Shown piece by piece: positions 13,375 to 30,954 of a DNA stretch of 64,000 nucleotides (position 1 is its first letter; every line of letters starts with the position of its first letter). The DNA comes from Polyangiaceae bacterium. GTDB lineage: Bacteria > Myxococcota_A > Polyangia > Polyangiales > Polyangiaceae. A program made the position numbers and the translations under genes. Where the stretch lies: assembly GCA_050298815.1 (NCBI GenBank), contig JBNKUV010000104.1, positions 21,631 to 85,630 of the forward strand, in the 5' to 3' direction. The notes beneath the pieces were generated by a model. It made no database searches and had not been told where the DNA came from. It was given only the letters and a program-made list of their open reading frames with translations.

Positions 13375-14537
13375 CACGCTGGGAACGGTCAGACCGTTCT
13401 ACGCGGCAACGGTCAGACCGTTGTTCGGGTCGCTGTGGGAACGGTCCGACCGTTCCCTCGACAACGGTCAGACCGTTGTTTGTGTCGACAGCGTGTCATC
13501 GTACGCGGGGCGTCGTCGAGTGGGGAGAGTGCGGTAACTGACTGAAAGTAATTGGGAATGTGTGTGGAATGTCGCGCTGGGGTATCGTTGCTTCGCGAGG
13601 TCGTGGCTCCTCTCTTGGATCGGGGAACGGTCGGACCGTTGTCCCGAGCGGAGAGGGCGGTCGCGGCGTCCACGGCTCCCGAACCATCCGAATGCTGGCC
13701 ACGGCCGCCGCATCGACGACGCCAAAGGCGAAAAAGCATGTCGGCGGTGTCGAGACGCTGCTCGCGGAGGGGCCTGCCAACCCGCTGGGAACGGTCAGAC
13801 CGTTGTGCGCGGCAACGGTCTGACCGTTGTTCGGGTCGCTGTGGGAACTGTCCGACCGTTGTCTCGAGAACGGTCAGACCGTTGTTTGTGTTGACGGCGT
13901 GTCATCGTACGGCGGGCGTCATCGAGTGGGGAAACTAGTGGTAACTAGCTGAAACTAATTGTGAATGTGTGAAGAGCGTCGCGTCGCGGCATCGTTGCTT
14001 CGCGCTGTCGTGGCGTCTCCCTTGGGTCGGGGAACGGTCGGACCGTTCTTCCGAGTAGAGAGAGCGGTCGCGGCGTCCACGTCTCCGGAACCATCCGAAT
14101 GCTGGTCGCGGGCGCCGCATCGACGACGCCAAAGGCCAAAAGCATGTCGGCGGCGGCGAGAAGCTGCTCGCGGAGGTGCTTGCCAACCCGCTGGGAACGG
14201 TCAGACCGTTGTTTGTGTCGATTGCGTGTCATCGTACGGCGGGCGTCATCGAGTGGGGAGACTGCGGTAACTGACTGAAAGTAATTGGGAATATGTGAAA
14301 GATGTCGCACTGTGGCATCGTTGCTTCGCGAGGTCGTGGCGCCTCTGTTGGGTCGGGGAACGGTCGGACCGTTCCTCCGAGCAGAGAGGGTGGTCGCGGC
14401 GTCCACGTCTCCGGAACCATCCGAATGCTAGCCACGGCCGCCGCATCGAAGACGCCAAAGGCGACGAGCATGTCGGCGGCGGCGAGAAGCTGCTCGCGGA
14501 GGTGGCTGCCAACCCGCTGGGAACGGAGCTACGCATT
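13375..14537. repeat. Three tandem ~406-bp units carrying 12 copies of the dyad AACGGTC-N-GACCGTT
   Basis: Dyad centres are at 13391, 13415, 13447, 13470, 13632 / 13797, 13821, 13853, 13876, 14040 / 14203, 14366. The period is 406-408 bp. The third unit lacks about 80 bp. Stops occur in all frames. Confidence 0.9.
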
Positions 14538-14960
14538 CTTTCCAGCAAAGAGTTCGACGCCAGATCGCTACTCTGTGTGGTCTTCGCCGGTGACCGCCGT
14601 CTGCTCGACCGACTCGGGCACCGAGACCTACAACCCATCGAGAGTCGAATTCGGCGCCGCCTCTTACTTGAAGGGGCTCCCAGAGACGAAATGCTCGCCT
14701 GTCTCGACCACCCGCTGATGCAGCTGGCAACCCCGATCTCTCATCGCCACCGACGCGAAGGTCGCCATCGCCGAGCACTCCGCAGCCAACTACCGCAGCA
14801 GATGACCCACTGCGACGAGCTCTTCGCCACCATGCTCGACCGTGACGCCACCATCATCGACGCGGACCTCTTCTTCGATCACTACAAGCCAAAGCGCGCC
14901 AAGCGCCGAAAGAAACTAACCCTCAATTCGCGCGATCAGGCGACCATCAAAATTGCGTGA
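14440..14960 (+). pseudogene. ExeA/TniB-like transposition AAA ATPase relic (3' part, frameshifted, no Walker A)
   Basis: RIEDAK...ELRILSSKEFDARSLLCVVFAGDRRLLDRL...RIRRRLLLEG is in one frame. AGNPDL and LIATDAKVAIAEHSAANYR are in the two other frames. The reading then returns to the first frame (MTHCDELFATML...). That implies at least 3 frameshifts. Confidence 0.6.
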
Positions 14961-14974
14961 TCGCGCTCAAGGAA

Positions 14975-15610
14975 CTACGCCGCCGACTCACTGGGGTCTG
15001 TTCCTGTTGTATCGGGGAAGTACCAGGCATGGTTACTGTGGTAGTCCCATACAGCTGCAGCTGCTGCAGCGACCCCGATCGACGCGGCCGCGATCCAGTT
15101 TGGCGGCGCGAGCAGGAGCAGAGCGACAAGGAGCGTGATTAACAGGATGTTGCTTGTGAGCCACTGGACTTCTGTCTTGGTGCGCTTGTGGTCGGTACCT
15201 TCTAGGATGAAGAGCCATGCGGTGTCGGCGACCAGGACCAGCAGGAAGAGGAACAGGAATACGCCGACGGTTCCAATCGAGATCGCGGTGAGAAAGAAGA
15301 GGACCGATTGCGACAGAAACGCGAGCATGTCCCAGTGCCACTTGCGAGCGGTGCTCAGGGCGCGTAGGTGAATTACCGACCCGTGCGCGAACCGAGTTGT
15401 CGTGCACAAAAAGGCGACCAAAAGGCCGAGCTGATGAACCCGCCTGGCGTCGAACACACCCATGCCAAGCGAAGCTCCGTCGCCAGGTTGTGCAGTAAAG
15501 GTGCGCAGCAGCGACTCCGATATCGCCAGACCCAGAACGACCAAGTAGATGCGAGTAATCCCCTCGGTTGTCGCCTGCCTGACCATGTCGGGTCTGTGCA
15601 CCGGTGTCAT
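14975..15610 (-). CDS. Multi-pass membrane protein, hypothetical, coupled to the NDT-like gene
   Basis: 211 aa with 5-6 hydrophobic helices (e.g. MLAFLSQSVLFFLTAISIGTVGVFLFLFLLVLVADTAWLFIL, LTSNILLITLLVALLLLAP). Its ATG overlaps the upstream TGA (ATGA at 15607-15610). Confidence 0.7.
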   Translation of the reverse strand: MTPVHRPDMVRQATTEGITRIYLVVLGLAISESLLRTFTAQPGDGASLGMGVFDARRVHQLGLLVAFLCTTTRFAHGSVIHLRALSTARKWHWDMLAFLSQSVLFFLTAISIGTVGVFLFLFLLVLVADTAWLFILEGTDHKRTKTEVQWLTSNILLITLLVALLLLAPPNWIAAASIGVAAAAAAVWDYHSNHAWYFPDTTGTDPSESAA

Positions 15611-16080
15611 TCGGTGGACGCGGCCCAGCGCACAAGAGCCTTTTTAGAAGAAGAGAGTTCGTTGAGTGAACTATAGAAATAGTCCTGCCAGCTGATCTCC
15701 GGAAGACCGGCAAACACCATCAAGTTGAGAGGGTAGTCGGTGCTGTCCGAGCACCGCCGAAGGTCATCCCGAAAGAGGAACGTCGGCTTCTGAAGGGCAA
15801 TCGCAACGCCAAGCTCAACCATAACTCCTTCATCGGGAGGTGTACCATTGACAACGGCGAAGATCCCGTCGCATTCCTTGACGCCCTGAAGGTTTAGTTG
15901 CGCAACGGCGTAGGCCCACCCTGGTTCCCGAGCAACGAGGTGCTTAGTTCGCTCGAAGGGTTCCCACACCTCGAGTCCAAGAGCTTCGAGGGCTTCCTTC
16001 AGTCTCGGCAGGACCAGCGCGCTCGCTTGCTCTGAGAAACCATAGCTGTTCGCGAGATAGAGCTTCTTCTTTTCTGTCAC
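15607..16080 (-). CDS. Nucleoside 2-deoxyribosyltransferase-like (NDT/Rcl superfamily) protein
   Basis: KLYLANSYGF ... CDGIFAVVNGTPPDEGVMVELGVAIALQKPTFLF matches the NDT fold pattern, including the DxG..E.G catalytic-Glu segment. GTG start preceded by GGGAGG with a 4-nt spacer. Confidence 0.7.
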   Translation of the reverse strand: MTEKKKLYLANSYGFSEQASALVLPRLKEALEALGLEVWEPFERTKHLVAREPGWAYAVAQLNLQGVKECDGIFAVVNGTPPDEGVMVELGVAIALQKPTFLFRDDLRRCSDSTDYPLNLMVFAGLPEISWQDYFYSSLNELSSSKKALVRWAASTE

Positions 16081-16210: not shown

Positions 16211-16522
16211 GTCCGCCCAAACGAGGCCGTAGAAAATCCCACTTTGGCGTGAACGTCAACCTGCCCCCCGCCTCTCGGGCCCCCGCGCTCGATTTTCGTC
16301 GCCCTCGTGCCCGAGCCCTCCGCTGGGGCCACCCCGGTTCACCCGGGGCTGACGCGCTCACTGACGGTGCACTCTGGCGATCTTCTCGATGTTGTGAACG
16401 ATGGTGAAGAGCTGCCACTGGGCGTTCACCTTGAGTTGTCCACGCACCGTAAAGCGGCGCATGCCCTTGTTTTGGATGTTGCCGAAGACGTGTTCGACAG
16501 TGCCGATGCGTTTGCTGTAGAT
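16211..16522 (-). mobile_element. IS1182/IS5-superfamily right-end relic A (last ~55 transposase codons plus terminal region)
   Basis: Aligns by eye with 17978-18290 and 20091-20420. Encodes IYSKRIGTVEHVFGNIQNKGMRRFTVRGQLKVNAQWQLFTIVHNIEKIA. Confidence 0.75.
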
Positions 16523-16532
16523 TGTTGGGCAG

Positions 16533-17159
16533 CTACTCGCGGCTCGTGTCGTCCTCGACTTCGCGTTCTTGCCAGGCTTGGAAGCGTTCGTCCAGAACGT
16601 AGATGTTTAGGACAATTGCCTTGGTCAGCTCCAGCGCCGTTCGAGCTTCTTGTCGCTGAATGGTCGACGAACCGTGGACCGCGGTATTGCCGAAACGGCG
16701 CACTAACCGGTCTGCCCACGTGAACGTCCGTGCGTCGAGGATAGCGTCGGCTTCGAGCTGTCGGAGGTTCTTGTACAGCGACGTACCCTTCGCTCCCTTC
16801 TCGACACATAGCAACTCCAGTGTCCGGCGGCAGGTGATGACCGCCTGGCGATACTCGTGATGCCAGTGAAACGCGCGGTGCGCCTCAGCGTAGCTTTCGA
16901 TGATCGACTTGGGGACCGGCCAGCCCACGCCAGTCTCGTCTTTCGGATAAAGGTACTGAGGCGCCTGCCACTTTGTCAGGTCCGCTGCTGGTTCGCCGCG
17001 GTAGTGGACGAGGAAGTGAGTGCAACAAGCGGGGCAGGACAAGAACGCGATTTGTCCGGGTGGATCTTGGGAGACCACATCCACGCCGTGTCTAACTCCA
17101 CGAACGTGGGTCCTGCACGAGGTACAACGCACGATGTAGTCGGGGTCGGCAGTTATCAT
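16533..17159 (-). CDS. Zinc-ribbon plus DUF4145-like domain protein
   Basis: N-terminal CTSC...CPAC four-Cys ribbon. The C-terminal ESYAEAHRAF...CRRTLELL...ADRLVRRFGNTAVHG...ALELTKAIVLNIYV resembles the DUF4145 pattern (R..GN.AAH). Confidence 0.6.
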   Translation of the reverse strand: MITADPDYIVRCTSCRTHVRGVRHGVDVVSQDPPGQIAFLSCPACCTHFLVHYRGEPAADLTKWQAPQYLYPKDETGVGWPVPKSIIESYAEAHRAFHWHHEYRQAVITCRRTLELLCVEKGAKGTSLYKNLRQLEADAILDARTFTWADRLVRRFGNTAVHGSSTIQRQEARTALELTKAIVLNIYVLDERFQAWQEREVEDDTSRE

Positions 17160-17203
17160 TGGGCGAGCTATGGGGGTGGGGGAGAGCTGGCTCCAGTGGG
17201 GGG

Positions 17204-17845
17204 TTAGTACTGCCGAGTAGAGCCACCGCGCCCTCCAGCACCACCGCCACCGCCGTGGCTGTGGTTGACGGGGGGAGTAGCCGGCGGCGCGGGGAGCGCC
17301 GCAGCGTTGGGGGTCGTCGCAGCTTGGGGTTCTGGGATGTCAGGTGGCGCTGGCAACTGAGTCACGACTTGAAAGGGCACGGCGAGGTCGCCGCGAAGCA
17401 CATTGATTAGGCGCTTTCTTAGCTCGTGCTGATCCCGCTCTAGATCACTGTGCGCGCTGGGCAAGTACGTTTGATTCTTGAGATGGACCTTGTCAAAGTC
17501 GTAGCTTAGGGCTGATGCCATACGACCCAGCAATTCGATGAACAGGTCATCTGTCCTTGTGTGCCACGCTTGAGCGGAGCCGCTCGATGGCGTGTTCAAG
17601 TGGTCGAGGTACTCTTTCCAGGCAAGGGTTACAGGTCGGTCCTCGTAGAACTCGACGTCAATGAGGTTTAGAGCTTCGACATGTGGCGCGCTTAGCTTCT
17701 GAGCGCGAGTCGCCATCAGGGTTTTGAAGACGGCAAGCCGGCGATCACGGCGAACCTTACGATCATCAAGCCGTCGAGCAACCTGCACGGCGAGTATCGG
17801 GCCGAGCAACACTGCCATGATCATCACGGCGTCGGAAATGGTCAT
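17204..17845 (-). CDS. Single-pass membrane-anchored hypothetical protein with Pro/Gly-rich tail
   Basis: N-terminal TM (AVMIMAVLLGPILAVQVA) followed by a basic stretch. The soluble domain reads FKTLMATRAQKLSAPHVEALNLIDVEF... From memory it resembles DUF6680-type proteins; this was not checked. Confidence 0.5.
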   Translation of the reverse strand: MTISDAVMIMAVLLGPILAVQVARRLDDRKVRRDRRLAVFKTLMATRAQKLSAPHVEALNLIDVEFYEDRPVTLAWKEYLDHLNTPSSGSAQAWHTRTDDLFIELLGRMASALSYDFDKVHLKNQTYLPSAHSDLERDQHELRKRLINVLRGDLAVPFQVVTQLPAPPDIPEPQAATTPNAAALPAPPATPPVNHSHGGGGGAGGRGGSTRQY

Positions 17846-17977: not shown

Positions 17978-18977
17978 GTCTGCCCAACGAGGCCGTAGAA
18001 AGACCCACTTTGGCGAAAACGTCAACCTCCCCCCCGCCCCCTCGGGCCCCGCGCTCGGTTTTCTTCGCCCCGTGGCCCCAGCTCCTTCGGATGGGCCACC
18101 CCGGTTCACCCGGGGCTGACGCCCTCACTCACGGTGCACTCTTGGCAATCTTCTCGATGTTGTGAACGATGGTGAAGAGCTGCCACTGGGCGTTCACCTT
18201 GAGTGGTCCACGCAGTGTGAAGCGGCGCATGCCCCTGCTTTGGATGCTGCCGAAGACGGGTTCGACAGTGCCGATGCGTTTACTGTAGATGGCGCGGCCA
18301 ACGGGCGTGTCGAACTTCCTGCGCATGCGCTGGACGGCTGCATTCGAGGTGGCCTTTGTCGCGGGCGCTGGTCCGACTCGCTCCTTGACGACCGTGAGCT
18401 GGCGCTGCTTGGTAAGTTCGGGATGGCGTAAGCATTGGCTCCGCAGCGGGCAACCTCGGCATGCGGTGATGGGTGCTTTGAAGTGAGCGACGCGGTAACC
18501 ATTGAACAGCATGTCTGTGCCGCTCTTGTAGAGCTTGTGGCCAGCGGGGCAGAAGCAGGTTTCGTTCTGTTCATCGTAGACGAAGTCCTCGAGCGTGAAC
18601 TGCTTCTTGGGTAGCTTCGGCCGTGCCTCGCGTTCGCGACGACGCTTCAACGCGCGCTCCTTGAGGCTTCGCTGCTTGTGGCGGGTGGTGTCGGCAAATG
18701 CCGGATCGCGGCGGCGGAAGTCGCGATCGGCGATGTAGGCGTCGGCGCCGGTCTTCTCGACGGCGGTGAGGGCGACCTTGCTGTGGAAGCCGCTGTCAGC
18801 GGTCAATTTGGCTTTGTCGAAAAGATCGACATCGGGGTTGCCTGTCCGCCGAGGCGTGGCAGCCGCTGCCGCATGGGGCTGCAACGTCTGCGTTTGGACG
18901 CAAATAGCCACGGTCCGTGCGAGGTTTGTAGAATCCACCATTGACGGGCCCGGATGCGCGGCGGAGAGTTTGCGCAT
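17978..18977 (-). mobile_element. IS1182/IS5-superfamily relic B (3' ~850 bp of the transposase gene plus right end; 5' part missing)
   Basis: ORF 18129..18977: LTADSGFHSK...GADAYIADRD (DDE region), Cys-rich CPAGHKLY...CRGCPLRSQC, and C-terminal MRRFTLRGPLKVNAQWQLFTIVHNIEKIAK. At 282 aa it is too short for a full transposase. Confidence 0.8.
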
Positions 18978-20037
18978 GCGTATAGCAGTCCTTGGCAGTT
19001 GGCGGCAGGAGGATGCACGGCAGTGGAAGTTGCGCGAAGACGGTGAACAATTCGCCCAAGCGTGTCGTCGAATCGGGCAGGAGCTGATCAGACGGGGTCA
19101 CAGCCTCATCGTAGGCACAGACTCTCGACACACGGCTGACGGTAACGCGGCCCGAGGTGCGTACGACGAACTGGCAGAACAACGGACCGATCGACCAAGA
19201 ATAACAGTAGTCAGGCAAGATGATTCCAGTACATATCTTGCATTCAACGACCAGCGCCGCGCCCACGGTGGCATTTTCGTTGATCACATCGTGCACGGAT
19301 CAAGTTGGGCGGCAGTGAAACTAGTACAGACTCAGCTCGCTGACGCTGTTTTGCTAGTTGGCGGGGCAGAAAAGACGGAGCAGGCTGGATTGACCGCGGC
19401 GGTAGCCAGGAAGCCAATCGCATGCATCGGCTCTTTTGGGGGAGCAGCGTCGAAGCTTAACCAAACGTTCCAGCATTCACCGGCGACATGGGGCTACGAG
19501 CCTTGGGAAACGCGCCGAGTCGGTGAACTACAAGAGCCATTCAGCGAGATAGTACTCAAGTCAGCTCTCGAGCAGGCGTGGATCGAAGGCGCACCGAAAC
19601 TCATGATCATTCACGGCCGCAGTCCCGACCGGAACCTGCTCAAGAGGTACCTCGCTGGCGCTGCAGGAGCAGTGATTGTGCTAGCCGACGAGTTTGATCC
19701 CACGCAACCGATTCCGATAAAACTGGAGCGGTTCGCTTCATCGGTGGATGGGGCGATCGCTTTGCTTACTCCGGACGATGTTGGCGGATTGGCCGACGAT
19801 CCGAGCAATACAGCAAGTCGAGCAAGGGAAAACGTGTGGGTTGAAGTCGGCTGGTTTTGGGGTCGGCGAGGTCGGTCGCATCTGCTGCTTTTGAGAAAGG
19901 GTGACGTGACCATTCCTTCAGACCTTCTCGGCGTAGAAGCCTACAAGTACACCAAGAGTCCCGTTGAGTGCCGCGAAATCATCAACAAGTTCATTTCTCG
20001 GCTACGGGCGGCAAGCGAAGCGACCAATGTTGGATGA
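18976..20037 (+). CDS. SLOG/LOG-like Rossmann domain fused to a TIR-like (Cap12/PycTIR-type, PF10137-like) domain
   Basis: N-terminus: MRIAVLGSW..., LLVGGAEKTEQAG (compare PGGxGTxxE), FGGAAS. C-terminus: KLMIIHGRSPD...AIALLTPDDVG...RARENVWVEVGWFWGRRGRSHLLLLRKGDVTIPSDLLGVEAYKY, the pattern of TIR-like predicted nucleotide-binding proteins. ATG at 18976 with GGAGAG 8 nt upstream. Confidence 0.7.
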   Translation: MRIAVLGSWRQEDARQWKLREDGEQFAQACRRIGQELIRRGHSLIVGTDSRHTADGNAARGAYDELAEQRTDRPRITVVRQDDSSTYLAFNDQRRAHGGIFVDHIVHGSSWAAVKLVQTQLADAVLLVGGAEKTEQAGLTAAVARKPIACIGSFGGAASKLNQTFQHSPATWGYEPWETRRVGELQEPFSEIVLKSALEQAWIEGAPKLMIIHGRSPDRNLLKRYLAGAAGAVIVLADEFDPTQPIPIKLERFASSVDGAIALLTPDDVGGLADDPSNTASRARENVWVEVGWFWGRRGRSHLLLLRKGDVTIPSDLLGVEAYKYTKSPVECREIINKFISRLRAASEATNVG

Positions 20038-20090: not shown

Positions 20091-20420
20091 GTCTGCCGAA
20101 CGAGGCCGAAGTGAAACCAAATTTGGCGTGAACGTCAACCTGCCCCCCGCCCTCTCGAGCCCCGCGCTCGGTTTTCTTAGACCCGAGCCCCATGGGCTGC
20201 CCCTCGGCTGGGGCCCCCCCGGTGCGCCCCGGGGGGGCGCCCTCACCGACTGTGCACTCCGGCGATCTTCTCGATGTTGTGAACGATGGTGAAGAGCTGC
20301 CACTGGGCGTTGACCTTGAGTTGCCCACGCGTCGTAAAGCGAGTAAAGCGGCGCATGTCCTTGTTTTGGATGTTGCCGGAGACGGGTTCGACAGCGCCCA
20401 TTCGCTTGGCATAGAGCGCT
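20091..20420 (-). mobile_element. IS1182/IS5-superfamily right-end relic C
   Basis: Encodes ALYAKRMGAVEPVSGNIQNKDMRRF(TRF)TTRGQLKVNAQWQLFTIVHNIEKIA with a 9-bp internal duplication. Same orientation as A and B, and nearly the same truncation point as relic A. Confidence 0.7.
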
Positions 20421-20424
20421 GTCG

Positions 20425-21429
20425 TCAGTGACCTTCACGTGTTTCAGAAGATCCCGCCCGCCTGCGAAACAGCAGGAACATCGCAAGTGCGTGCATGGCC
20501 AACGACGTGGGAGGGGGTTCAGGGCTTAGGGAACAGGCGCAGCCGCGGGTGGTGGGTGCGGGGAAGAGCTTGGACGGGCCAGGCGTGGGATGTTCGAGGC
20601 GCAGGGATTGAGTCCAGCCAGAGAAGTTCCCAGCGATGTCGTAGGAGCCGGCTCTAACGGTGATGGGTCCACGCTCGAAGTCCCAGTTTCGGCTGCAGCC
20701 GGAGGAGCCCACGACGATGTCGTCATCTGCGAAAACATCGGAGACCAGAAGAGGCCTCTCTGGCAGCATCGTTGGTCCGTGTGTGAGCGCGAGGGTGACT
20801 GCGACACCGTCATGGGCGAACGGGATTAGGAAGTGGTCACCGCGAAGGCACATCTCGCTGCTGCCGAGATTGTCGAAGATGGCCTCGGGCTGCCCCAACG
20901 TCGGCAGTCTTGGAGGCTGCTCAAGCCGAGAAGAAGTAGCGGTGACAACGATCACGTTGCTGTCGTCAGAGCCGCTGATCGCTGGACGCAACGCTACCGT
21001 TCCGGTGGGCAAGTCTTGGTGAGGAGACAGGATGAAGTAGCGGACGCGCCCCGAGGGTCTGCTGCGGAGTAGCAGGACATCGAAGGCCACACCGTTTCCA
21101 TTGGAGTTGGTGAGGACTAGGCTGTGAGTGAGCTCCTCGCTTGTGGGAGTAAGCTTTCCAAACCCGAACCTGAGGTTGGCGCCACGTTCGGGCTGCGACG
21201 CGATGAGGTGGTTACCGGCTATCCAGGCGGCGGTTGGAGCTGGCAGCCAGAACTTGGCATTGGCCGGTACGACGTCGCCGGTTTTCGGAGCGACGCGGTC
21301 GGGTAGAACCGCACACGAACAGGCGTCGGCCTCGTTTGACAGGCAGCCGAGGACCAGGAGAACGCCCAACGACATGAGCAAACGGCGCGGGACTGAAAGG
21401 TCGTGGCTTGCGGTCGGGCAGCGCAACAT
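20425..21429 (-). CDS. Secreted protein with MYXO-CTERM-like sorting tail
   Basis: Signal peptide (LLMSLGVLLVLGCLS). The C-terminal GCACSLSPEPPPTSLAMHALAMFLLFRRR resembles the MYXO-CTERM motif (GCxC, hydrophobic stretch, RRR). Confidence 0.6.
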   Translation of the reverse strand: MLRCPTASHDLSVPRRLLMSLGVLLVLGCLSNEADACSCAVLPDRVAPKTGDVVPANAKFWLPAPTAAWIAGNHLIASQPERGANLRFGFGKLTPTSEELTHSLVLTNSNGNGVAFDVLLLRSRPSGRVRYFILSPHQDLPTGTVALRPAISGSDDSNVIVVTATSSRLEQPPRLPTLGQPEAIFDNLGSSEMCLRGDHFLIPFAHDGVAVTLALTHGPTMLPERPLLVSDVFADDDIVVGSSGCSRNWDFERGPITVRAGSYDIAGNFSGWTQSLRLEHPTPGPSKLFPAPTTRGCACSLSPEPPPTSLAMHALAMFLLFRRRAGSSETREGH

Positions 21430-21498
21430 CGTGCTCAGACGTTGAAGTCTAGGATTGCTTGGATGTGCGGGGCGCCAAGACGCTGTACGATTCGACCC

Positions 21499-22869
21499 AT
21501 GAAGCGGGGGATTGTGTTGGCGGCCGCAGTACTGGTTTCTTGCTCGGGAACCGCGTCGGAACCGCCCGCTTCTGCCCCGGGTCCCGCCGAGACGACTCGC
21601 CTGCCGGCATGCCTCGTCCTGTCCGTCGGAGCGGAGGCTGGTCTTTCACATGTCGGTGTCATTCAAGCGGTCAAAGAGAAGGGGGTGCGTGTCGACTGTG
21701 TCGTCGGGACGAGCATGGGAGCGATGGTCGGAGGCTTGTTCGCCGCACGGCCCAATAGTGACGTGGCGGATGCCTACCGTGCGGTCGCCGCACGCTATCG
21801 AGAGAAGTCGGAGGCGGAGGCGGGCACATCAGTGCTGTTGGGAGGCGTCATCGTGGGGTTAGTCGTAGCTGCCAGTGGTGGAAGCACCGCGCCGGTGTTG
21901 CTGGGCGCGGCCTCAGGCGGTGCGGCTGGAGCGTCCAGCGTATCGCCGAAAGATTGGAGGCGCCTGCGTGCGGTCCTTCGGGAACAGCACGCTGGTGTCA
22001 CCATCGAATCGCTGCCCATCCGTTTCGGGACAGTGCACCAGGAGCTAACTGATAGCGGGGCGGTAACAGTCGCTGAACGAGGTGGTCTCCTCGCAGACGC
22101 CATCGCGACGAGCATTGCCAATCCACTATTGTTCAGCGACCTGAGTGCGACAAGGGGGCGGAAGATCGACCCAGGTCTTGATCGAGTTTCTGCAATTCCT
22201 GTCGAGGCGGCGTGTGAGATGTTTCCCGGTCACCAGCTGCTGGTGAGCAACGTTATTGGTGGTGAGATATTCACATCTAGGGCGATGAACTGTCCGTACC
22301 AAGAGATCAAGGTGCCACCCGTGATTGTTGACGCAACCGCTGCGATGAGCGCCATGGACCCTGCATTTGGTCAGCTCGTGACTGCGGGATACCAGGCCGC
22401 GGTGGAGAGTGTCGACTGGAACTTGCTACCGGACGCGACATTCCCGGCGGGTACCTCCGGACCCGTTCAGCCTCCGGTCTGGACGGTCCGAGTTGGACTG
22501 GCTATCGACATGGCCACACAGAAGCCATCGGGAAACGCCTGGGACGCGTTCGGTGGTCTCCCTGACATTGAACAGACCACGACGATCTCGGCGTGCGCGG
22601 GATGTGATGGGTTTGGGACGTCCGCCAGTCAGCCCGGTCTCCGCGGAATGGTGAGGGACACATTTCGAGCTGGCTGGGATCTTGGGGTGCTTCGGTTGCG
22701 CGAGGGAATGGTGTTTGACGTTCACGTGGAAGACGCGGACGTATCCAGCGACGACGCCGTGGGTGACTTTCGGCTTGTGTTCGAGGGGCCAGGAACCGTG
22801 GCCACAGCGCAGAACGTCGCGGCGCGCGTCACGCTTACGTTCAGCGGTGACGTCCACGGTCAGCGGTAG
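21499..22869 (+). CDS. Patatin-like phospholipase, lipoprotein
   Basis: MKRGIVLAAAVLVSCSG lipobox. GLSHVGVIQAVKEKGVRVDCVVGTSMGAMVGG contains the GxSxG nucleophile elbow. The track ORF start at 21403 is probably over-extended. Confidence 0.7.
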   Translation: MKRGIVLAAAVLVSCSGTASEPPASAPGPAETTRLPACLVLSVGAEAGLSHVGVIQAVKEKGVRVDCVVGTSMGAMVGGLFAARPNSDVADAYRAVAARYREKSEAEAGTSVLLGGVIVGLVVAASGGSTAPVLLGAASGGAAGASSVSPKDWRRLRAVLREQHAGVTIESLPIRFGTVHQELTDSGAVTVAERGGLLADAIATSIANPLLFSDLSATRGRKIDPGLDRVSAIPVEAACEMFPGHQLLVSNVIGGEIFTSRAMNCPYQEIKVPPVIVDATAAMSAMDPAFGQLVTAGYQAAVESVDWNLLPDATFPAGTSGPVQPPVWTVRVGLAIDMATQKPSGNAWDAFGGLPDIEQTTTISACAGCDGFGTSASQPGLRGMVRDTFRAGWDLGVLRLREGMVFDVHVEDADVSSDDAVGDFRLVFEGPGTVATAQNVAARVTLTFSGDVHGQR

Positions 22870-23743: not shown

Positions 23744-24925
23744 CTACCGTCCCGTTGGGTACGATGCCAGCTCGCCCACCAGCTTCCTCACTCCTATGGC
23801 CTCGATATCCTCGCTCACCGGATACCGATCCTCGCCAGCGTGAACGACAAAGCGCCTGCTAGCTTTGATGTCCTCGCTGGCCAGATGAAAGCCCTTCTTC
23901 GGGCGAGCGGAGAGGCTGCGTTTGACCTCTACCGCCCACCGTTGCTTACCTGGCAAGTCGAGCACCAGGTCCACTTCCGCGCCCGCGGATGTCCGGTAGA
24001 AGCTCGCGGTGGTGCGGGGTGGGGCTACTGCGAGCAGATTCTCGATCACAAACCCCTCCCAGCTCGCTCCGACGACTGGATGTCCAGCGACCCGGTTGTA
24101 GTCCTCCAGGCCCAGCAGGGCGTGCACCAGCCCGCTATCCCGAACGTACACCTTCGGGCTCTTCACCAGCCGCTTGCCGCTATTCGCGTGCAGGGGCGGC
24201 AGCCTGCGCACCAACAGCAAGTCGACGAGCAGGTCGACGTAACGCGTGATCGTCGGCGCGCTTACCGAAAGTCCCGTCGCCAGCCGCGATGCATTGAGCA
24301 GCGTTCCCTGACTATGCGCGAGCATCGTCCACAAGCGTTCGAGCGTGGTGGCAGGAATGCGTGGGCCGAACTGCGGCACGTCCCGCTCGAGATACGTGTG
24401 AATGAAGTCCACACGCCAGGCGAGGCTGTCGGTATCCGATGCAGCCAGAAAGCTGTCGGGGAACCCACCACGCAGCCAAAGCGTGTTCAATGCCTCCGCG
24501 TCCGACGCCGCCTCGGCAACACAAACCGGCCCCATCTCCACGAAGGCGATTCGTCCCGCCAGGCTCTCGCTCGACTGCCGGAGCAAATCGATCGAAGCAG
24601 ACCCGAGCAGCAGAAAACGGCCATGCCGCCGCCCACGCCTCCGCCCGGCGTCGATGAGTCCCCGCAACGCCGTGAAGAGTTCCGGCACCCGGTGAATCTC
24701 GTCAAGAATGACCAGGCGGTCTTCGTAGGCGCGGAGGAACAGCGTCGGGTCGCTGAGTTTGTCGCGATCTTCCTTTGCTTCCAGGTCGAGGTACAGCGCA
24801 TCCGTGCCCTCGGCGACTTCGTGCGCCAGGGTAGTTTTGCCGACCTGCCGGGGGCCAATGAGCGCCACGGAGGCCTGCCGGTTCAGGGCGTCCCGAACCT
24901 TCAGTAACGCCAGCCTAGACAGCAT
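23744..24925 (-). CDS. AAA+ ATPase with DUF4143-type C-terminal domain (COG1373-like)
   Basis: Walker A IGPRQVGKTTLA, Walker B LVILDEIH, and a long C-terminal region typical of AAA_14/DUF4143 proteins. Confidence 0.75.
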   Translation of the reverse strand: MLSRLALLKVRDALNRQASVALIGPRQVGKTTLAHEVAEGTDALYLDLEAKEDRDKLSDPTLFLRAYEDRLVILDEIHRVPELFTALRGLIDAGRRRGRRHGRFLLLGSASIDLLRQSSESLAGRIAFVEMGPVCVAEAASDAEALNTLWLRGGFPDSFLAASDTDSLAWRVDFIHTYLERDVPQFGPRIPATTLERLWTMLAHSQGTLLNASRLATGLSVSAPTITRYVDLLVDLLLVRRLPPLHANSGKRLVKSPKVYVRDSGLVHALLGLEDYNRVAGHPVVGASWEGFVIENLLAVAPPRTTASFYRTSAGAEVDLVLDLPGKQRWAVEVKRSLSARPKKGFHLASEDIKASRRFVVHAGEDRYPVSEDIEAIGVRKLVGELASYPTGR

Positions 24926-25859: not shown

Positions 25860-26882
25860 CTAGCTGTCTACGAGAGCGTTGTCTGTGCGAGCACTGAGAT
25901 CCAAGAGTTGAACGCACAGTAGGCCAACGCATTCGTTTGGTGTGGACTGCGCTATGATGGACTGCATTTCACGAAGGTAGTCCATTTGGAGGTCGCGAAT
26001 GCGCCGTAGGTCGCCTCGACTGGCCGAGAACAGGCTGTAGCCGAAGTGGCCAGGGGCTTTCTTTGCCATTCGGTCGCACGCGATCTTCGCCCACGCTTGC
26101 GTTAAGAGACCTCGCGTCGCAGGATCGGTACCTGTCGTTACGGTCAAGGATGGAGCGATCTGCCACTTGGTGTCAGTAGGCACAATCTGCTTCGAACGTT
26201 GCAGGGTGTACAGGGCTCGCTGAGCTTGCTCAGCTGTTATTCCGAGAACATGTTGGAGCCATGCGATCACGTCTTGAATGTCGTCGAACTCGGCGAGTTC
26301 GAGTGCTCGTAGCACTGCATGTGACCAGATGTCCTGGTAGGCCGCTTCGCGCATGCGAAGTAGACGTGTCCATCGCGGTTTGGCTGTTGGGAGGGCTGCA
26401 GGGTCGTGGAACGCGGCAATGAAGTCGAGCGAACGCCGGCTCGCGGCTTCAGTCAACCGCAAGAACTCTGGGAGTTTCGGCTCGGACGTGGCACTGAGCC
26501 AACGCGAAATACGGTATCGACTGTAGCCAGTGCTTTCAGAGAGAGCACTCAGCTTGGCCTTGCCACGGACTTGGCGCAGGAAGGCGGCGATGGCGGCAGC
26601 GGAGCTTGGCTCGAGATGCTGCAGCCAGGAGGGGGTTCTGTGGAAGTATGCCGTGAAGGCCGAGCGCAGGTCTTTGCCCGTCCGCTCACACGCGCGCAAG
26701 AACACCGCCGCTGTTGGCCACGACGTGCCGCGCTCCCAGCGGTGGACGACGCTGCTCGCGTAACCGAGGTGACGGGAAAGGGCAGCCTGTGAACGCCTGC
26801 CGCGGAGCGCCCTGACCCAGTCAGCAGCGATGGCTTCAAAGTCAATGTCCCGTGCCAGCCCTTCAATCTTGTGCGTGTTCAT
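25860..26882 (-). CDS. HTH regulator, DUF4423/TIGR02147-like
   Basis: Two XRE-like HTH segments (RRSQAALSRHLGYASSVVHRWERG; KLSALSESTGYSRYRISRWL) plus a C-terminal domain ending LLCVQLLDLS. The start could instead be 26933 or further upstream (track ORF to 27059). Confidence 0.5.
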   Translation of the reverse strand: MNTHKIEGLARDIDFEAIAADWVRALRGRRSQAALSRHLGYASSVVHRWERGTSWPTAAVFLRACERTGKDLRSAFTAYFHRTPSWLQHLEPSSAAAIAAFLRQVRGKAKLSALSESTGYSRYRISRWLSATSEPKLPEFLRLTEAASRRSLDFIAAFHDPAALPTAKPRWTRLLRMREAAYQDIWSHAVLRALELAEFDDIQDVIAWLQHVLGITAEQAQRALYTLQRSKQIVPTDTKWQIAPSLTVTTGTDPATRGLLTQAWAKIACDRMAKKAPGHFGYSLFSASRGDLRRIRDLQMDYLREMQSIIAQSTPNECVGLLCVQLLDLSARTDNALVDS

Positions 26883-26987
26883 TCTTTGCTCAATTTGCAC
26901 CAGTTGAAGCAGAGCAGGCACAGAAATGTGCATTGTGCGCGCTGAACAGACTTGGCTGAGCTGTGTTGGGATGGCATTGATCCGTGA

Positions 26988-28331
26988 ATGGCGGGGCCGG
27001 TTCAGCGATTCATTCTCCTCACTGGCCTCGCAGTCACGGCGTGCGGAAGTGAGTCGCACCAGCAGTCCGCTCAGGGAAGCGAGACGGACGACGCAGAGGC
27101 GACAGAGTCGAGGGTGCCGGTCGATGAAGGGGAGAACGATGGGGGATGGGTGTCAGCGCGAGCTGGTGGCGAGACTTCCGAGTTCGGTGGCGTCCGACTC
27201 TACTGCTTGGAGGACCTCACTCCAGCGGTGGAACTCGCTCGACCAGACGTAGCGGCATGGGTTCAGGCTGTTGCTGGGGTGCATCGGGTGCCTTTCGCTT
27301 GGAACCCTCGCTTTCTGATGGAGCCTTACACAGACTTCTCGGACTCCACACACATCACCCTCGTGATTGAGCCGCTGAGCGCGCGCGAAGTGATTTTCGA
27401 GACAGGGTGCGTGGACGAGCGCACGCTCCAGCTGGAGCTCTCAGTTGAACTTGAAGTAGAGGACGAATCGCTTGGGGGTTCCATCACGCTCTGGGTTGGT
27501 GGGGTGCCCAACGTCGCTCCGGCCGACGGCGGCGTGTTGAGCAGCGCGTGGAGTCCGCCACACTCGCTCGAAACCTTCCATGGTTCGATTGCGGACTTGG
27601 GCTCGCAGACTGCGGGACGCAGAGAGCTCAGTGTGCGGCTGGTTCTGGACGGGACCTCTGCACGGGGGCAACTGGAGCCATTCTTCGCGCCAGGCGACCT
27701 CGAGGCTGGGCCAGGCGGCGAGCCCGAACCGACCGGTGGCTCGTCACCGCTGGGCGGTGTGTTTCCGGACGACGGCTGCGCTTCAACGGAACGTCCACTT
27801 ACGTTAACCGAGAACCTCGACGACTATGCTGCGCCAACTGCCCGGCAATTGATCGATGATGTGGCTGCGTTCTGGGACGACCGGACTCTTCTCGCGCAGT
27901 GGGAGAATGGCGACGCGACGGAAGCGACGTTCACGGTGGGCGAACCGATGGGAGCGTGTATGACCAGGACCTATCACTATCCTGGCAGCGACGCGTTCCG
28001 ACAACAGGGCGCGATTGGCATTCAGACACTGACGCAGTTTCAGACTGCGGACGCAGCAGTTGCGCTTGAGGAACTTCTTGCGTTTCGATTCGAACCGGGC
28101 AGCACTGGAGTCGTAGCTGAATCCATTCGCCCATCGACGTGGATCCCGGCTGAGTCATTCGAAAGCGCAACCGGCATCGTTGGAGTCAAATTGAGCCAAG
28201 GCAGCTTCGGTTCGCTAGACTTCAGGACCGAATTCGACATCGCTGACGGGACCTTCAGCGGTCGACTCTTCATTGACGAGTGGTTGGAGTCCGATCCTCG
28301 CGGGGCTGACTTCCCGACGTTGGATTGGTAA
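26988..28331 (+). CDS. Hypothetical lipoprotein
   Basis: FILLTGLAVTACGSE lipobox; acidic secreted-type composition; 447 aa. Confidence 0.6.
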   Translation: MAGPVQRFILLTGLAVTACGSESHQQSAQGSETDDAEATESRVPVDEGENDGGWVSARAGGETSEFGGVRLYCLEDLTPAVELARPDVAAWVQAVAGVHRVPFAWNPRFLMEPYTDFSDSTHITLVIEPLSAREVIFETGCVDERTLQLELSVELEVEDESLGGSITLWVGGVPNVAPADGGVLSSAWSPPHSLETFHGSIADLGSQTAGRRELSVRLVLDGTSARGQLEPFFAPGDLEAGPGGEPEPTGGSSPLGGVFPDDGCASTERPLTLTENLDDYAAPTARQLIDDVAAFWDDRTLLAQWENGDATEATFTVGEPMGACMTRTYHYPGSDAFRQQGAIGIQTLTQFQTADAAVALEELLAFRFEPGSTGVVAESIRPSTWIPAESFESATGIVGVKLSQGSFGSLDFRTEFDIADGTFSGRLFIDEWLESDPRGADFPTLDW

Positions 28332-28835: not shown

Positions 28836-29402
28836 TCACGGGCTTGTTGGATCGCCCGGAGCCATCTGTCGCACCCAAATCCAGCCCTCGCGCTTCGCCA
28901 AGTCGAGGTCAGTTGGGGCGACTGCATCGCCAACGGCGTAGTCGGCTCCGGCAAGGGTGCAGACGGCAGCGTCGAACGCATCATCGGAGGCAATGGCGTT
29001 GTCGCAAGCGTCCGGCTCGAACTCGACTTGAGGCATGGCTTCGATGAGGGGTGACCGCATCGCGTCAGAGCCGACCCCCTTGTAGCCGGAGCTAGGCAAA
29101 CCGAGCGCCTTCAGAGTGGCGGCCGGATACACCTCGATGACTTGGTGGGAATGGACAACGCCAGGGGTCCAACCCATGACGAGAGGCAGGGTGTTTCGGA
29201 TTTCGGAAAGGATGCCGAGGGCAGCGTGCGCGGTTCGCGCAATGCGGTCGGCGCCGACATCGAGAGACTGCTTGCCCAGGCGCTGCTTGATGGCGCGGTC
29301 GGTCTCACGGCGAAAGAGCGAGTGAGCATCAAACGGAAGGGGGTCACCGGCGCTATGTGAGTGGAGCGCTTCGGCAAATGCGGTGGCAAGACGATCACAC
29401 AT
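28836..29402 (-). CDS. DUF429-like (predicted RNase H-fold) protein, possibly N-terminally truncated
   Basis: VIEVYPAATLKALGLPSSGYKG ... SDDAFDAAVCTLAGADY ... REGWIWV matches the remembered DUF429 pattern. The expected N-terminal strand is not seen. Confidence 0.5.
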   Translation of the reverse strand: MCDRLATAFAEALHSHSAGDPLPFDAHSLFRRETDRAIKQRLGKQSLDVGADRIARTAHAALGILSEIRNTLPLVMGWTPGVVHSHQVIEVYPAATLKALGLPSSGYKGVGSDAMRSPLIEAMPQVEFEPDACDNAIASDDAFDAAVCTLAGADYAVGDAVAPTDLDLAKREGWIWVRQMAPGDPTSP

Positions 29403-29464
29403 CAGCCTGGGCGTGCCAACGGTGGCGTTTGCAATTTGGGACGGACGTGTGAAGCTAGGAGCAG

Positions 29465-29938
29465 ATGCTTTTGGCGAAGAACAGGGCCGATGGGGTCGGT
29501 TGGCTTATTCGGTTGGTGCTTGCCGTAGCGGGACCGGCGGCGGTGCTGGGTTGCGGCAGCGACGACGACGATGAGCCGAGCATGACGGTGTACGAGGACC
29601 GAGGAAAAGTCTGCATCGAGTCGGAGGACGACGGAGCAGTGAGGGTCCTGGTCGAGTTCCCAACGTGCTTGTCCAGTTCCTGTGATCAGGTGAAGGAGCG
29701 CACGTGCTCGGTGGCGGTGACGAGTGAAATGATCAACATCACCAGTCGCGGCGTGGTGGAGCACCGTGGCACGGATTGCACGTCGGATTGCGGGATATTC
29801 ACCACAGAATGCCGGTCAGAGGCGGTGGAAGCCGGCACGTATTCCATCGTTCATGGAGAGGATTCAGCCGGCGTGACGCTACCGACGGACGCAATGCAGG
29901 TGCTTGGGGACGGGATGCTGCTCGGAGGATGCGAGTAG
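29465..29938 (+). CDS. Small Cys-rich lipoprotein, hypothetical
   Basis: LVLAVAGPAAVLGCGSDDDDE lipobox; 9 further Cys residues. Confidence 0.55.
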   Translation: MLLAKNRADGVGWLIRLVLAVAGPAAVLGCGSDDDDEPSMTVYEDRGKVCIESEDDGAVRVLVEFPTCLSSSCDQVKERTCSVAVTSEMINITSRGVVEHRGTDCTSDCGIFTTECRSEAVEAGTYSIVHGEDSAGVTLPTDAMQVLGDGMLLGGCE

Positions 29939-29963
29939 CGATCGAACGCGGGAAGCTCGGACA

Positions 29964-30080
29964 CATCGCGTTATCGGTTCCCCGCGGTTCGACCGGTCGC
30001 AATGCAAGGTCTGCCCAGTGCGGATACTGCTCAGCAACAAGCCCAGCCACCAACTCGACGCCGACAGGAAACCTCGTCAT
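29964..30080 (-). pseudogene. Aminoglycoside/choline-kinase-type phosphotransferase (APH) N-terminal fragment
   Basis: MTRFPVGVELVAGLVAEQYPHWADLALRPVEPRGTDNAM, after which similarity is lost. Its ATG overlaps the stop of the upstream APH fragment (ATGA at 30077-30080). Confidence 0.5.
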
Positions 30081-30315
30081 CGTGCATTCGCTCGCTCTAC
30101 GGCGGCCTGGCCCGGATCCAGACGTTCGAGAAATCGTGCTCTCGATTCGTCGGTAAACAACGGCGACCAAGCAACCTGCACGTCGACCGCCGGGTCGCCA
30201 ACGCACGCCGAGCCCCAATCGACCAGGCCGCTGAGGTGCCCGTCCAACGCCAGACAGTTGCCCTCGAGATCCCCGTGCACCCAACGCAGAGATCCCACAT
30301 GGGGCTCAGCTGCCA
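30077..30315 (-). pseudogene. APH-family C-terminal fragment
   Basis: WVHGDLEGNCLALDGHLSGLVDWGSACVGDPAVDVQVAW is the HGD catalytic loop plus the DWG..GDP motif. There is no N-lobe upstream. Confidence 0.55.
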
Positions 30316-30381
30316 GACCGGCTTTCCCAGATCGAAGTCGAAGAGAACAGCGGTGAGCATGCCAAAGGGGAGGCGGCGTGG

Positions 30382-30954
30382 CTATCTGGAGTCGGAGGGT
30401 GGGTGGATGGTGAGGCGAGGCCAGCGAGCACGCCATCTCTTGGTGCGAAGTCTGGAGAGATAAGCGCTCCTGTCGACCAACGCAGGGGCCGGGCGGAGCT
30501 GCAGTCCGAACAGATCGCCCAGGCCGTACGGTGCGACAACAGCGAACGTGTCCTTTTCGCCAAGCCTAACAGCGACCGCAGTAGCGGTTTCCGGCCAAGC
30601 GGAGATGGCAGCGTCGAGTGACTCGTACGGGGCGACTGGACGACGAAGCTCGCGACTCTGCCACTGATGGACCTCAGCCTGGTTTGTGACGTCCCATCGA
30701 AATCCTGGCAGGGCATTGTCGAGCCGTTGGCTCCAATTCGCGGGCGCTGCCTGGGGGGCGAAGAAGACAACGTCTACATCGGCGGTTGGTGAAGCGCTGT
30801 TGGCATCATGCAGGACGTTCCAGACGACGTCGCGGACGACGCCAGCGCCGACGTAGGCTTCGGATGGGCCGACGTCACGGACGACTCGGAGCACTTCTAG
30901 GAGCCAGGGGGTCCCGAGGACGATACCTTGGAGTCTAGCGTGGAGGTCGCTCAT
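30382..30954 (-). CDS. Nucleotidyltransferase-family protein (NTP_transf_6-like)
   Basis: YVGAGVVRDVVWNVL...DVDVVFF...WDVTNQAEVHQW...WPETATAVAVRL...APYGLGDLF...RPAP...KRWRARWPRLTI matches the remembered PF06042-type pattern. Confidence 0.55.
   Translation of the reverse strand: MSDLHARLQGIVLGTPWLLEVLRVVRDVGPSEAYVGAGVVRDVVWNVLHDANSASPTADVDVVFFAPQAAPANWSQRLDNALPGFRWDVTNQAEVHQWQSRELRRPVAPYESLDAAISAWPETATAVAVRLGEKDTFAVVAPYGLGDLFGLQLRPAPALVDRSAYLSRLRTKRWRARWPRLTIHPPSDSR

Follow-up and report, generated by a model that had tools for sequence, protein, structure and literature searches.

A stretch of 64,000 nucleotides from a Polyangiaceae bacterium (GTDB phylum Myxococcota_A; GenBank assembly GCA_050298815.1, contig JBNKUV010000104.1, positions 21,631 to 85,630 of the forward strand; hereafter the window) carries at 18976-20037 an open reading frame (ORF) for a 353-amino acid protein, in which an N-terminal SLOG-like domain is fused to a C-terminal TIR domain of the type found in the defence effectors Cap12 and PycTIR. 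The gene is intact and belongs to a mobile family whose members are normally solitary, and whose N-terminal domain is found elsewhere joined to other effector modules. On balance, we lean towards reading the protein as an autonomous one-gene switch, that is, a ligand-gated hydrolase of nicotinamide adenine dinucleotide (NAD+) serving as a conflict or anti-phage module, whose ligand would come from a phage, from the host or from the protein's own activity. An earlier inspection of the letters alone (hereafter the sequence-only reading) had described the same gene as the orphan of a system of the CBASS (cyclic oligonucleotide-based antiphage signalling system) or Pycsar (pyrimidine cyclase system for antiphage resistance) type.

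The C-terminal half of the protein matches PF10137 ('CAP12/Pycsar effector protein, TIR domain') at amino acids 209-325, with an E-value of 7.8e-21, profile positions 2-117 of 119 covered and a score of 74.7 bits against a gathering cut-off of 24.7. Sequence searches of the PDB returned only Cap12 TIR-STING (9lmq, E 3e-6; 7un8) and PycTIR (8jsj); and Foldseek searches with the C-terminal half of an AlphaFold2 (AF2) model retrieved the TIR domain of TIR-STING (9lmq and 7un8, E 2e-7 to 7e-6), with SARM1 (7knq) among the weak structural matches. These results agree with the Cap12/PycTIR-type TIR domain proposed in the sequence-only reading. In the structure of SfSTING solved by cryo-electron microscopy, S10, R78 and N80 coordinate NAD+ and E84 is catalytic, while D110 from the opposing TIR domain completes the active site, activity thus depending on filament packing (PMC9402430). 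In the HMMER alignment to the PDB sequence (SEQRES offset of +8, validated by the match of all four residue types), R78, N80, E84 and D110 correspond to R284, N286, E290 and D316 of the window protein. All four residues are invariant in a 47-sequence family alignment, and they are kept in 72, 68, 73 and 65, respectively, of the 80 divergent full-length representatives. The glutamate of the VEVG motif, suggested from the letters alone as the catalytic residue, is therefore E290, the counterpart of SfSTING E84; proper alignment retains it in all 47 members. From the intact R/N/E plus trans-Asp residue set, the protein is predicted to hydrolyse NAD+.

The N-terminal domain (amino acids 1-205) gave no useful match in the Pfam, NCBIfam or PADLOC models, the best Pfam SLOG-family match of the whole protein being LD_cluster2 with an E-value of only 0.057, and its assignment comes from the AF2 model (47 family members as input; mean predicted local distance difference test score, pLDDT, 86.7; predicted template modelling score, pTM, 0.84). 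Foldseek matched the domain to the SLOG domain of BcThsA bound to 3' cyclic ADP-ribose (3'cADPR; 7uxs) with an E-value of 1e-4 and a target-normalised template modelling (TM) score of 0.71; the probability was 1.00 for 7uxs, 1rcu, 1ydh, 5its and 6lhx, with target-normalised TM scores of 0.6-0.7. Further matches of the model included TM1055 (1rcu), plant and bacterial LOG proteins, full-length ThsA (8bto, 6lhx) and TRPM channels, the N-terminal MHR1/2 region of which is SLOG-like and binds ADP-ribose (ADPR) in TRPM2. A sequence profile of the N-terminal domain alone matched no SLOG structure in the PDB; a broader family profile matched 1rcu (TM1055) by sequence (E 1e-4). Among the best 148 relatives of the N-terminal domain, 12 match the Pfam family LDcluster4 and 6 match STALD (best E 3e-7), the 'Sir2- and TIR-associating SLOG family' of Pfam; in relative P0142, the STALD match falls on the N-domain region and stays below threshold (20 bits vs 24). 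The domain is thus predicted to fold as a SLOG domain, of a clade without a Pfam model, in agreement with the SLOG/LOG-type Rossmann sensor that the sequence-only reading had proposed; the glycine-rich loop after beta1 and the GGxxxT-type loop that mark this fold are conserved. The conserved core of the domain comprises G7-S8, T53-A54-D55, a basic residue at 115, D123, G129-G130..T134 and F154-G155-G156, and would fit a ligand pocket. The position of the catalytic glutamate in the LOG motif 'PGGxGTxxE' corresponds to E135 of the window protein; it is variable in the family, mostly tyrosine, which argues for ligand binding rather than LOG-type catalysis.

The 353-amino acid translation of 18976-20037 contains every motif quoted in the sequence-only reading, which had placed the gene correctly; more than 100 homologues of 346-362 amino acids align with it at 100% coverage. 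Since all homologues begin with MR[VI]AxxGSW, the ATG at 18976 was taken as the start codon, and the GGAG found 9 nucleotides upstream of it is consistent with this choice. The GTG at 18766 given in a mechanical ORF list was rejected: the extension runs through a transposase relic and occurs in no homologue. The GC content of the ORF is 0.567 (0.572 at third codon positions, GC3), compared with 0.617 (GC3 0.723) for the housekeeping gene glyS.

The absence of any linked signal generator is a property of the family and not only of the window. Pfam scans of 41 window ORFs (out of 63 ORFs of at least 100 amino acids, the unscanned ones being mostly shorter than 190) detected neither a TIR gene nor a cyclase or CD-NTase gene, as the sequence-only reading had stated for the cyclase or other generator. 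When all ORFs within 7 kb of the gene were clustered in 35 loci, only the gene's own cluster spanned most of them, the next largest being unrelated kinases in 4 loci, and no conserved neighbour emerged across these loci. The 25 commonest families in a Pfam scan of the two ORFs on each side of the gene (126 neighbour ORFs) include none of the SMODS, CD-NTase or cyclase type; no SMODS/CD-NTase or PycC was found in the 39 homologous contexts surveyed overall; and ten Pfam-annotated contexts were mutually different and contained no CD-NTase gene. The comparison (hhalign) of the N-domain profile with each of the 126 neighbour ORFs gave no match. PADLOC-matching neighbours appeared in one or two ORFs only in each case (ThsA, AriA, LmuA, Dsr1, NsnB, AbiLi, mad2, PDC candidates), and the neighbours that recur across loci were integrases, insertion sequence (IS) elements, toxin-antitoxin pairs, CHAT, patatin and TPR-S proteins. 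The contexts are variable and conflict-rich, not housekeeping. The DNA similarity between the window and its relatives, the nearest one included, is confined to 18976-20021 and stops at the ORF borders; together with the GC and GC3 values of the ORF, this indicates that the gene is transferred on its own. Being solitary is normal in this family, and the IS relics in the window are not the cause of the missing generator. The description of the gene as the orphan of a CBASS- or Pycsar-type system is not supported in view of the 39 contexts without CD-NTase or PycC, the lack of a conserved neighbour and the end of similarity at the ORF borders; the loss of a generator, proposed in the sequence-only reading, is unlikely where the solitary state is the normal one. 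Two contexts can be described in addition. The closest relative (P0002, 80% identical; soil metagenome locus L002, 8880-13108) starts within an upstream GT4-conflict glycosyltransferase gene, with an overlap of 10 nucleotides, and has DUF4062-GAF and TIR_2 genes downstream on the opposite strand; the homologue on the P0025 contig is also flanked by DUF4062 and TIR genes.

The family comprises 217 close homologues of the SLOG-TIR protein, mostly of 346-362 amino acids, and a much wider group sharing the N-terminal domain: the N-domain profile, searched against 1.84 billion sequences (E <= 1e-3; representatives of 50% identity clusters), found 963 cluster representatives. Among the best 148 of these relatives, 73 combine the N-terminal domain with PF10137, 11 with TIR_2 and 3 with TIR, and single proteins combine it with CHAT, Trypsin_2 (N-terminal to SLOG), Metallophos, PNP_UDP_1, EAD7 and a Cap17-like domain. 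These fusion partners are effector classes known from CBASS, Thoeris and Avs, and such interchangeable killing modules on one sensor would be the signature of a ligand-gated effector family. Species representatives of GTDB with the family are spread patchily from Proteobacteria to Asgard archaea (Mesorhizobium, Acidobacteriota, Ideonella, Planctomycetota, Nitrospirota, Thermosipho, Chloroflexota, Actinomycetota, Bacteroidota and two Asgard archaea). In the four relatives P0149, P0184, P0239 and P0242 the same SLOG clade is joined to CHAT (caspase-like), Metallophos, Trypsin_2 and PNP_UDP_1 domains; these proteins are candidate SLOG-gated protease, phosphoesterase and nucleosidase effectors.

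Among the characterised systems, the window protein resembles several and belongs to none. Membership in CBASS was rejected (no CD-NTase and no STING or SAVED domain; 30.3 bits for the NCBIfam Cap12 model NF050172 and 21.8 for NF050171, against a cut-off of 450), as was membership in Pycsar (no PycC in any context and no domain binding cyclic nucleoside monophosphates; the PADLOC PycTIR model matches amino acids 232-346 only, E 5.6e-8). Cap12 (TIR-STING, TIR-SAVED) and PycTIR share with it the PF10137 TIR subfamily and the R/N/E plus trans-Asp residues, and by analogy the expected output, namely NAD+ hydrolysis through ligand-induced oligomerisation; however, their sensors are STING, SAVED or cyclic nucleotide-binding domains, and that of the window protein is SLOG. 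The best PADLOC match was PDC-S35 (E 4e-25), a candidate single-gene system and, like the gene studied here, a solitary PF10137-containing candidate defence gene; the match links amino acids 204-326 to profile positions 116-237 of 264, i.e. the TIR half, whereas the N-terminal module of PDC-S35 is different and shorter.

The resemblance to Thoeris lies on the sensor side, and the Thoeris effectors ThsA and ThsJ are the more fitting references for the window protein. The SLOG domain of ThsA, the effector of type I Thoeris, was among the best structural matches of the N-terminal domain (7uxs, 8bto, 6lhx); it binds 3'cADPR and activates the protein by filament formation (bioRxiv 10.64898/2026.03.01.708072; structures 7uxs, 8bto, 8btp). 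Both proteins would be ligand-gated effectors that deplete NAD+, as is known for ThsA and expected for the window protein. ThsA differs in that its effector is SIR2, its SLOG domain is C-terminal and its gene is operonic with ThsB, whereas the window protein has no SIR2 and carries a TIR effector; besides, residue Glu403 of the ThsA STALD domain (PMC7272460) has no clearly conserved counterpart in the window family, in which position 135 is variable. Type IX Thoeris, described in December 2025, couples a ThsB making 3'cADPR to ThsJ, a 'TIR and SLOG' effector, and ThsJ plus ThsB of Bacillus cereus VD021 protect B. subtilis from phage SP82G, although 3'cADPR alone does not trigger ThsJ (bioRxiv 10.64898/2025.12.03.692087, protection in Table S2). 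ThsJ of B. cereus VD021 (L051:4877-6748) was recovered by locating its ThsB and is a protein of 623 amino acids with TIR_2 at 147-235 and SLOG (LD_cluster3/2, STALD) at 437-601. As in the window protein, a SLOG sensor and a TIR domain share one effector polypeptide, and the two SLOG domains can be aligned at their core motifs (GG..T and IGS.GG). ThsJ differs in its domain order (TIR N-terminal and SLOG C-terminal), in its TIR and SLOG subfamilies and in having an adjacent ThsB, whereas the scanned ORFs of the 64-kb window include no such TIR gene. Orthology was rejected on these grounds (reversed order, different Pfam families) and on the comparison of the two sequences, BLASTP giving an E-value of 0.01 over 86 residues only and hhalign a probability of 0.5%. 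Type IX Thoeris is the closest validated system, and the window family is an independent, reverse-order assembly of the two domain classes of ThsJ from different subfamilies. The systematic Thoeris screen of 2025 removed 'TIRs found in standalone proteins' (bioRxiv 10.64898/2025.12.03.692087), and the family is absent from it because standalone TIR proteins were discarded there.

The preferred reading, a one-gene switch, would operate as follows. The SLOG domain would bind a small nucleotide-derived ligand, most plausibly an ADPR derivative; an ADPR-like ligand is our best guess because the two SLOG sensors that are well studied bind ADPR derivatives, ThsA 3'cADPR and the MHR1/2 region of TRPM2 ADPR. 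By analogy with ThsA and 3'cADPR (8bto, 8btp), binding may drive oligomerisation; the oligomer would pack the TIR domains in such a way that D316 of one subunit completes the R284/N286/E290 site of its neighbour, as D110 does in SfSTING; and NAD+ would then be hydrolysed, the infected cell ceasing to grow or dying (abortive infection). To our knowledge, every characterised SLOG sensor or TIR NAD+ hydrolase (NADase) effector of bacterial immunity is paired with a dedicated generator, namely ThsB, CD-NTase or PycC. A precedent for gating within one polypeptide is SARM1 (ARM-SAM-TIR), in which an allosteric nucleotide-binding domain gates the TIR NADase without a dedicated upstream signal-generating enzyme; SARM1 is, on the other hand, eukaryotic, its ARM sensor fold is unrelated to SLOG, and nothing points to sensing of nicotinamide mononucleotide or NAD+ by the window protein. 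Tentatively, and with rather low probability, the window protein may dispense with a generator altogether, its SLOG domain reading either a nucleotide that a phage makes or infection induces (candidates would be ADPR derivatives, modified nucleotides and intermediates of NAD+ salvage) or a cyclic-ADPR-type product of its own TIR domain; the latter version would be an autocatalytic, all-or-none, feed-forward NADase. If true, such a protein would be the bacterial, SLOG-based counterpart of SARM1-style metabolic gating, a 'single-gene Thoeris'.

Several observations weigh against the one-gene switch. How infection would be detected by a protein that stands entirely alone is left unexplained by the model; the SLOG assignment of the window protein comes from predicted structure and transitive sequence links, its own Pfam match having an E-value of 0.057; and searches of PLSDB plasmids and GenBank phages yielded no full-length relative, the sole matches being two TIR-only ones on Rhizobium plasmids. 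The fourth concerns the neighbours. In 8 of the 39 contexts, not all of them independent (L002, L011, L018, L020, L021, L048, L049 and the P0025 contig; HMM, i.e. hidden Markov model, built from six TIR_2 sequences, matches confirmed by Pfam), a TIR_2 gene is present within 7 kb, which hints that some members depend on a separate generator. This frequency would be well above that of a random 14-kb window, for which a background of about 1-4% was guessed as a rough estimate and not computed, and it is far below the obligate pairing of Thoeris operons. On this evidence the SLOG-TIR protein may be a Thoeris-like effector acting in trans, a shared NADase effector unable to sense infection alone, whose SLOG domain senses an ADPR signal released by unlinked TIR proteins (ThsB-like, TIR-WD40, TIR-TPR); we consider this rather unlikely, and yet the strongest of the rival explanations. 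TIR_2 is the commonest Pfam family of the neighbours; L021, L018 (its TIR-fragment ORF) and the P0025 contig have the TIR gene adjacent or close by in the same orientation; and L020 (10001-17037; Mesorhizobium kowhaii ICMP 19512) looks like a Thoeris-like island, in which the homologue clusters with SLATT_1/DUF4231, TIR_2-TPR and a second TIR_2 gene, its in-frame stop marking either a pseudogene or a sequencing error. Moreover, ThsA reads a TIR product, ThsJ pairs with a 3'cADPR-making ThsB, and Myxococcota and Acidobacteriota encode many TIR proteins. However, TIR_2 accounts for only 4 of the 126 neighbour ORFs; about 80% of the contexts, the 64-kb window included, have no nearby TIR gene; where present, the TIR neighbours are heterogeneous (small TIR, TIR-WD40, TIR-TPR), form no single homologous cluster and in many cases lie on the other strand or at a distance of several genes; and the SLOG-TIR gene transfers alone, unlike the known Thoeris pairs, which form tight operons. 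Since SLOG sensors are known from TIR/ADPR (Thoeris) signalling and not from cyclase systems, the expected partner, if any, is a TIR protein. The suggestion of the sequence-only reading that the generator is encoded elsewhere could thus hold, in view of the 8 contexts, for a TIR protein and not for a cyclase, and its alternative suggestion, direct sensing of a nucleotide, is favoured by the commonness of the solitary state.

Two further explanations carry little weight. The SLOG domain could be a LOG-like N-glycosidase or phosphoribohydrolase and the TIR-like domain a MilB/DNPH1-like hydrolase, making the protein a nucleotide-processing enzyme that serves in nucleotide salvage or cytokinin-like metabolism or detoxifies modified nucleotides. 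LOG enzymes and DNPH1 are indeed among the Foldseek matches, the same island contains a Nuc_deoxyrib_tr gene at a distance of 3 kb, and TIR-like folds include nucleotide hydrolases, SfSTING itself having been compared with MilB (PMC9402430). This explanation is nonetheless improbable: there is no match to the LOG Pfam family and the glutamate of the LOG motif is not conserved, the reason for setting aside a LOG-like enzyme as the main model; in the TIR domain, the NADase-type constellation of SfSTING (R/N/E plus trans-Asp) is intact; the N-terminal domain is elsewhere fused to proteases (CHAT, trypsin) and other killing effectors; and the contexts are variable and rich in mobile elements instead of being metabolic operons. 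The same variability and richness in mobile elements answers the point, raised in the sequence-only reading, that orthologues consistently placed among housekeeping genes would refute its proposal. Least probable of all would be a decayed remnant, i.e. a functionless gene, or one awaiting loss, left after IS activity deleted the generator of a CBASS-, Pycsar- or Thoeris-type operon. A truncated transposase does abut the start codon, a second IS fragment follows the stop codon, and the glycosyltransferase gene that overlaps the closest relative (P0002) is absent here; but the full-length ORF has lost none of the invariant residues and retains the Shine-Dalgarno-like site, the 39 contexts contain no cyclase, CD-NTase or conserved partner, and homology ends at the ORF borders.

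Whichever reading applies, a Cap12-type TIR domain wired to a divergent SLOG domain, with 963 representatives and mostly as a lone gene, is a class that has been filtered from discovery pipelines. A protein that works alone would show how a SLOG domain senses infection directly and would provide a compact NADase under ligand control; one that relies on unlinked TIR proteins would exemplify a shared effector acting in trans in TIR-rich 'multicellular' bacteria. SLOG-TIR fusions as such are expected by specialists, given the name of the STALD family; the points that are real and testable are how often the gene is solitary and what its SLOG domain senses when there is no partner. The SLOG-TIR protein is tractable for this purpose (353 amino acids, a clear catalytic mutant). 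The positions of the gene, its domains, its active-site codons and the flanking elements are collected in Table 1.

Table 1 Coordinates of the SLOG-TIR gene and associated features in the window.
Feature	Position	Strand	Basis or remark
SLOG-TIR fusion ORF	18976..20037	+	ATG 18976 to TGA 20037, complete, 353 amino acids plus stop
SLOG-like sensor domain (predicted), amino acids 1-205	18976..19590	+	AF2 pLDDT mostly >85; Foldseek; relatives match STALD/LDcluster4
PF10137 (Cap12/PycTIR-type) TIR domain, amino acids 209-325	19600..19950	+	Pfam, PDB sequence matches, Foldseek
Active-site segment R284-E-N286-V-W-V-E290	19825..19845	+	Aligns with SfSTING R78-D-N80-V-V-F-E84; invariant in 47-sequence alignment
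E290 codon GAA	19843-19845	+	Catalytic Glu of VEVG, counterpart of SfSTING E84
D316 codon, invariant P-S-D motif	19921..19923	+	Counterpart of SfSTING D110
Shine-Dalgarno-like GGAG	18963..18966	+	9 nucleotides upstream of ATG 18976, read directly from sequence
Weak sigma-70-like promoter match	18905..18934	+	9/12, within IS relic; consensus match only, 1 found vs 0.4 expected
Upstream IS relic	17978..18977	-	IS end plus transposase remnant abutting ORF start; PF13751 E 3e-22; repeat families D2, D3, D6
Downstream IS relic	20091..20407	-	Same IS end, 79-84% identical copies; only a 52-amino acid transposase fragment (PF13751), 20243-20401
Three direct copies of one IS end	16212-16522, 17978-18290, 20091-20407		67-93% identical; DDE_Tnp_1_6-type, IS1182/IS5-like

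The SLOG-TIR gene is located in an accessory island of about 18 kb (approximately 13.1-31 kb), between pepA/MFS and a purH-like gene. The IS relics noticed beside it in the sequence-only reading are real: the upstream one includes a DDE_Tnp_1_6 transposase remnant (18129-18977, reverse strand) that keeps 282 amino acids and is 5'-truncated exactly at the start of the SLOG-TIR ORF, and the downstream one is the short fragment listed in Table 1. The three IS ends split this part of the island into cassettes (Nuc_deoxyrib_tr plus a multi-transmembrane protein; DUF4145 plus DUF6680; the SLOG-TIR gene), and the presence of each copy beside a different cargo suggests a repeated, IS-associated build-up of the island. 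The SLOG-TIR cassette is followed by a MYXO-CTERM-like protein (weak match), a patatin, a PDC-S01 ATPase and others.

Other features of the island include, in order, three tandem repeats, each of about 330-406 bp (13377-14540; 70-93% identical), directly downstream of the MFS transporter gene, which yield many look-alike spurious ORFs; a PF05014 nucleoside 2-deoxyribosyltransferase-family gene (15607-16080, reverse strand; E 4e-28), which overlaps by 4 nucleotides with a multi-transmembrane ORF of 211 amino acids (14975-15610), the pair (14975-16080, reverse strand; low GC, 0.579) being a possible two-gene cassette of nucleotide hydrolase and membrane effector; a DUF4145 protein (weak PADLOC match to PD-T7-4, E 2e-6) and a DUF6680 protein (E 7e-54), bounded by IS-end relics (16533-17845, reverse strand); a patatin-like phospholipase (21403-22869); an AAA_14/DUF4143 ATPase (23744-24925, reverse strand) with a strong match to the PADLOC candidate system PDC-S01 (E 7e-93); and an HTH/DUF4423 regulator (25860-27059). 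At the far edge of the island (28839-30954, reverse strand), DUF429 (28839-29402) is accompanied by an NTP_transf_6 nucleotidyltransferase (30385-30954, reverse strand; E 4e-47), the only nucleotidyltransferase found in the window; it lies about 10 kb from the SLOG-TIR gene, and no link between the two genes was found. A protein of 1214 amino acids encoded at 37640-41281 (reverse strand) is a Ser/Thr kinase fused to TPR repeats and a STAND-type NTPase (AAA_16/NACHT); in Myxococcota, this architecture is typically that of regulated proteins of conflict or signalling.

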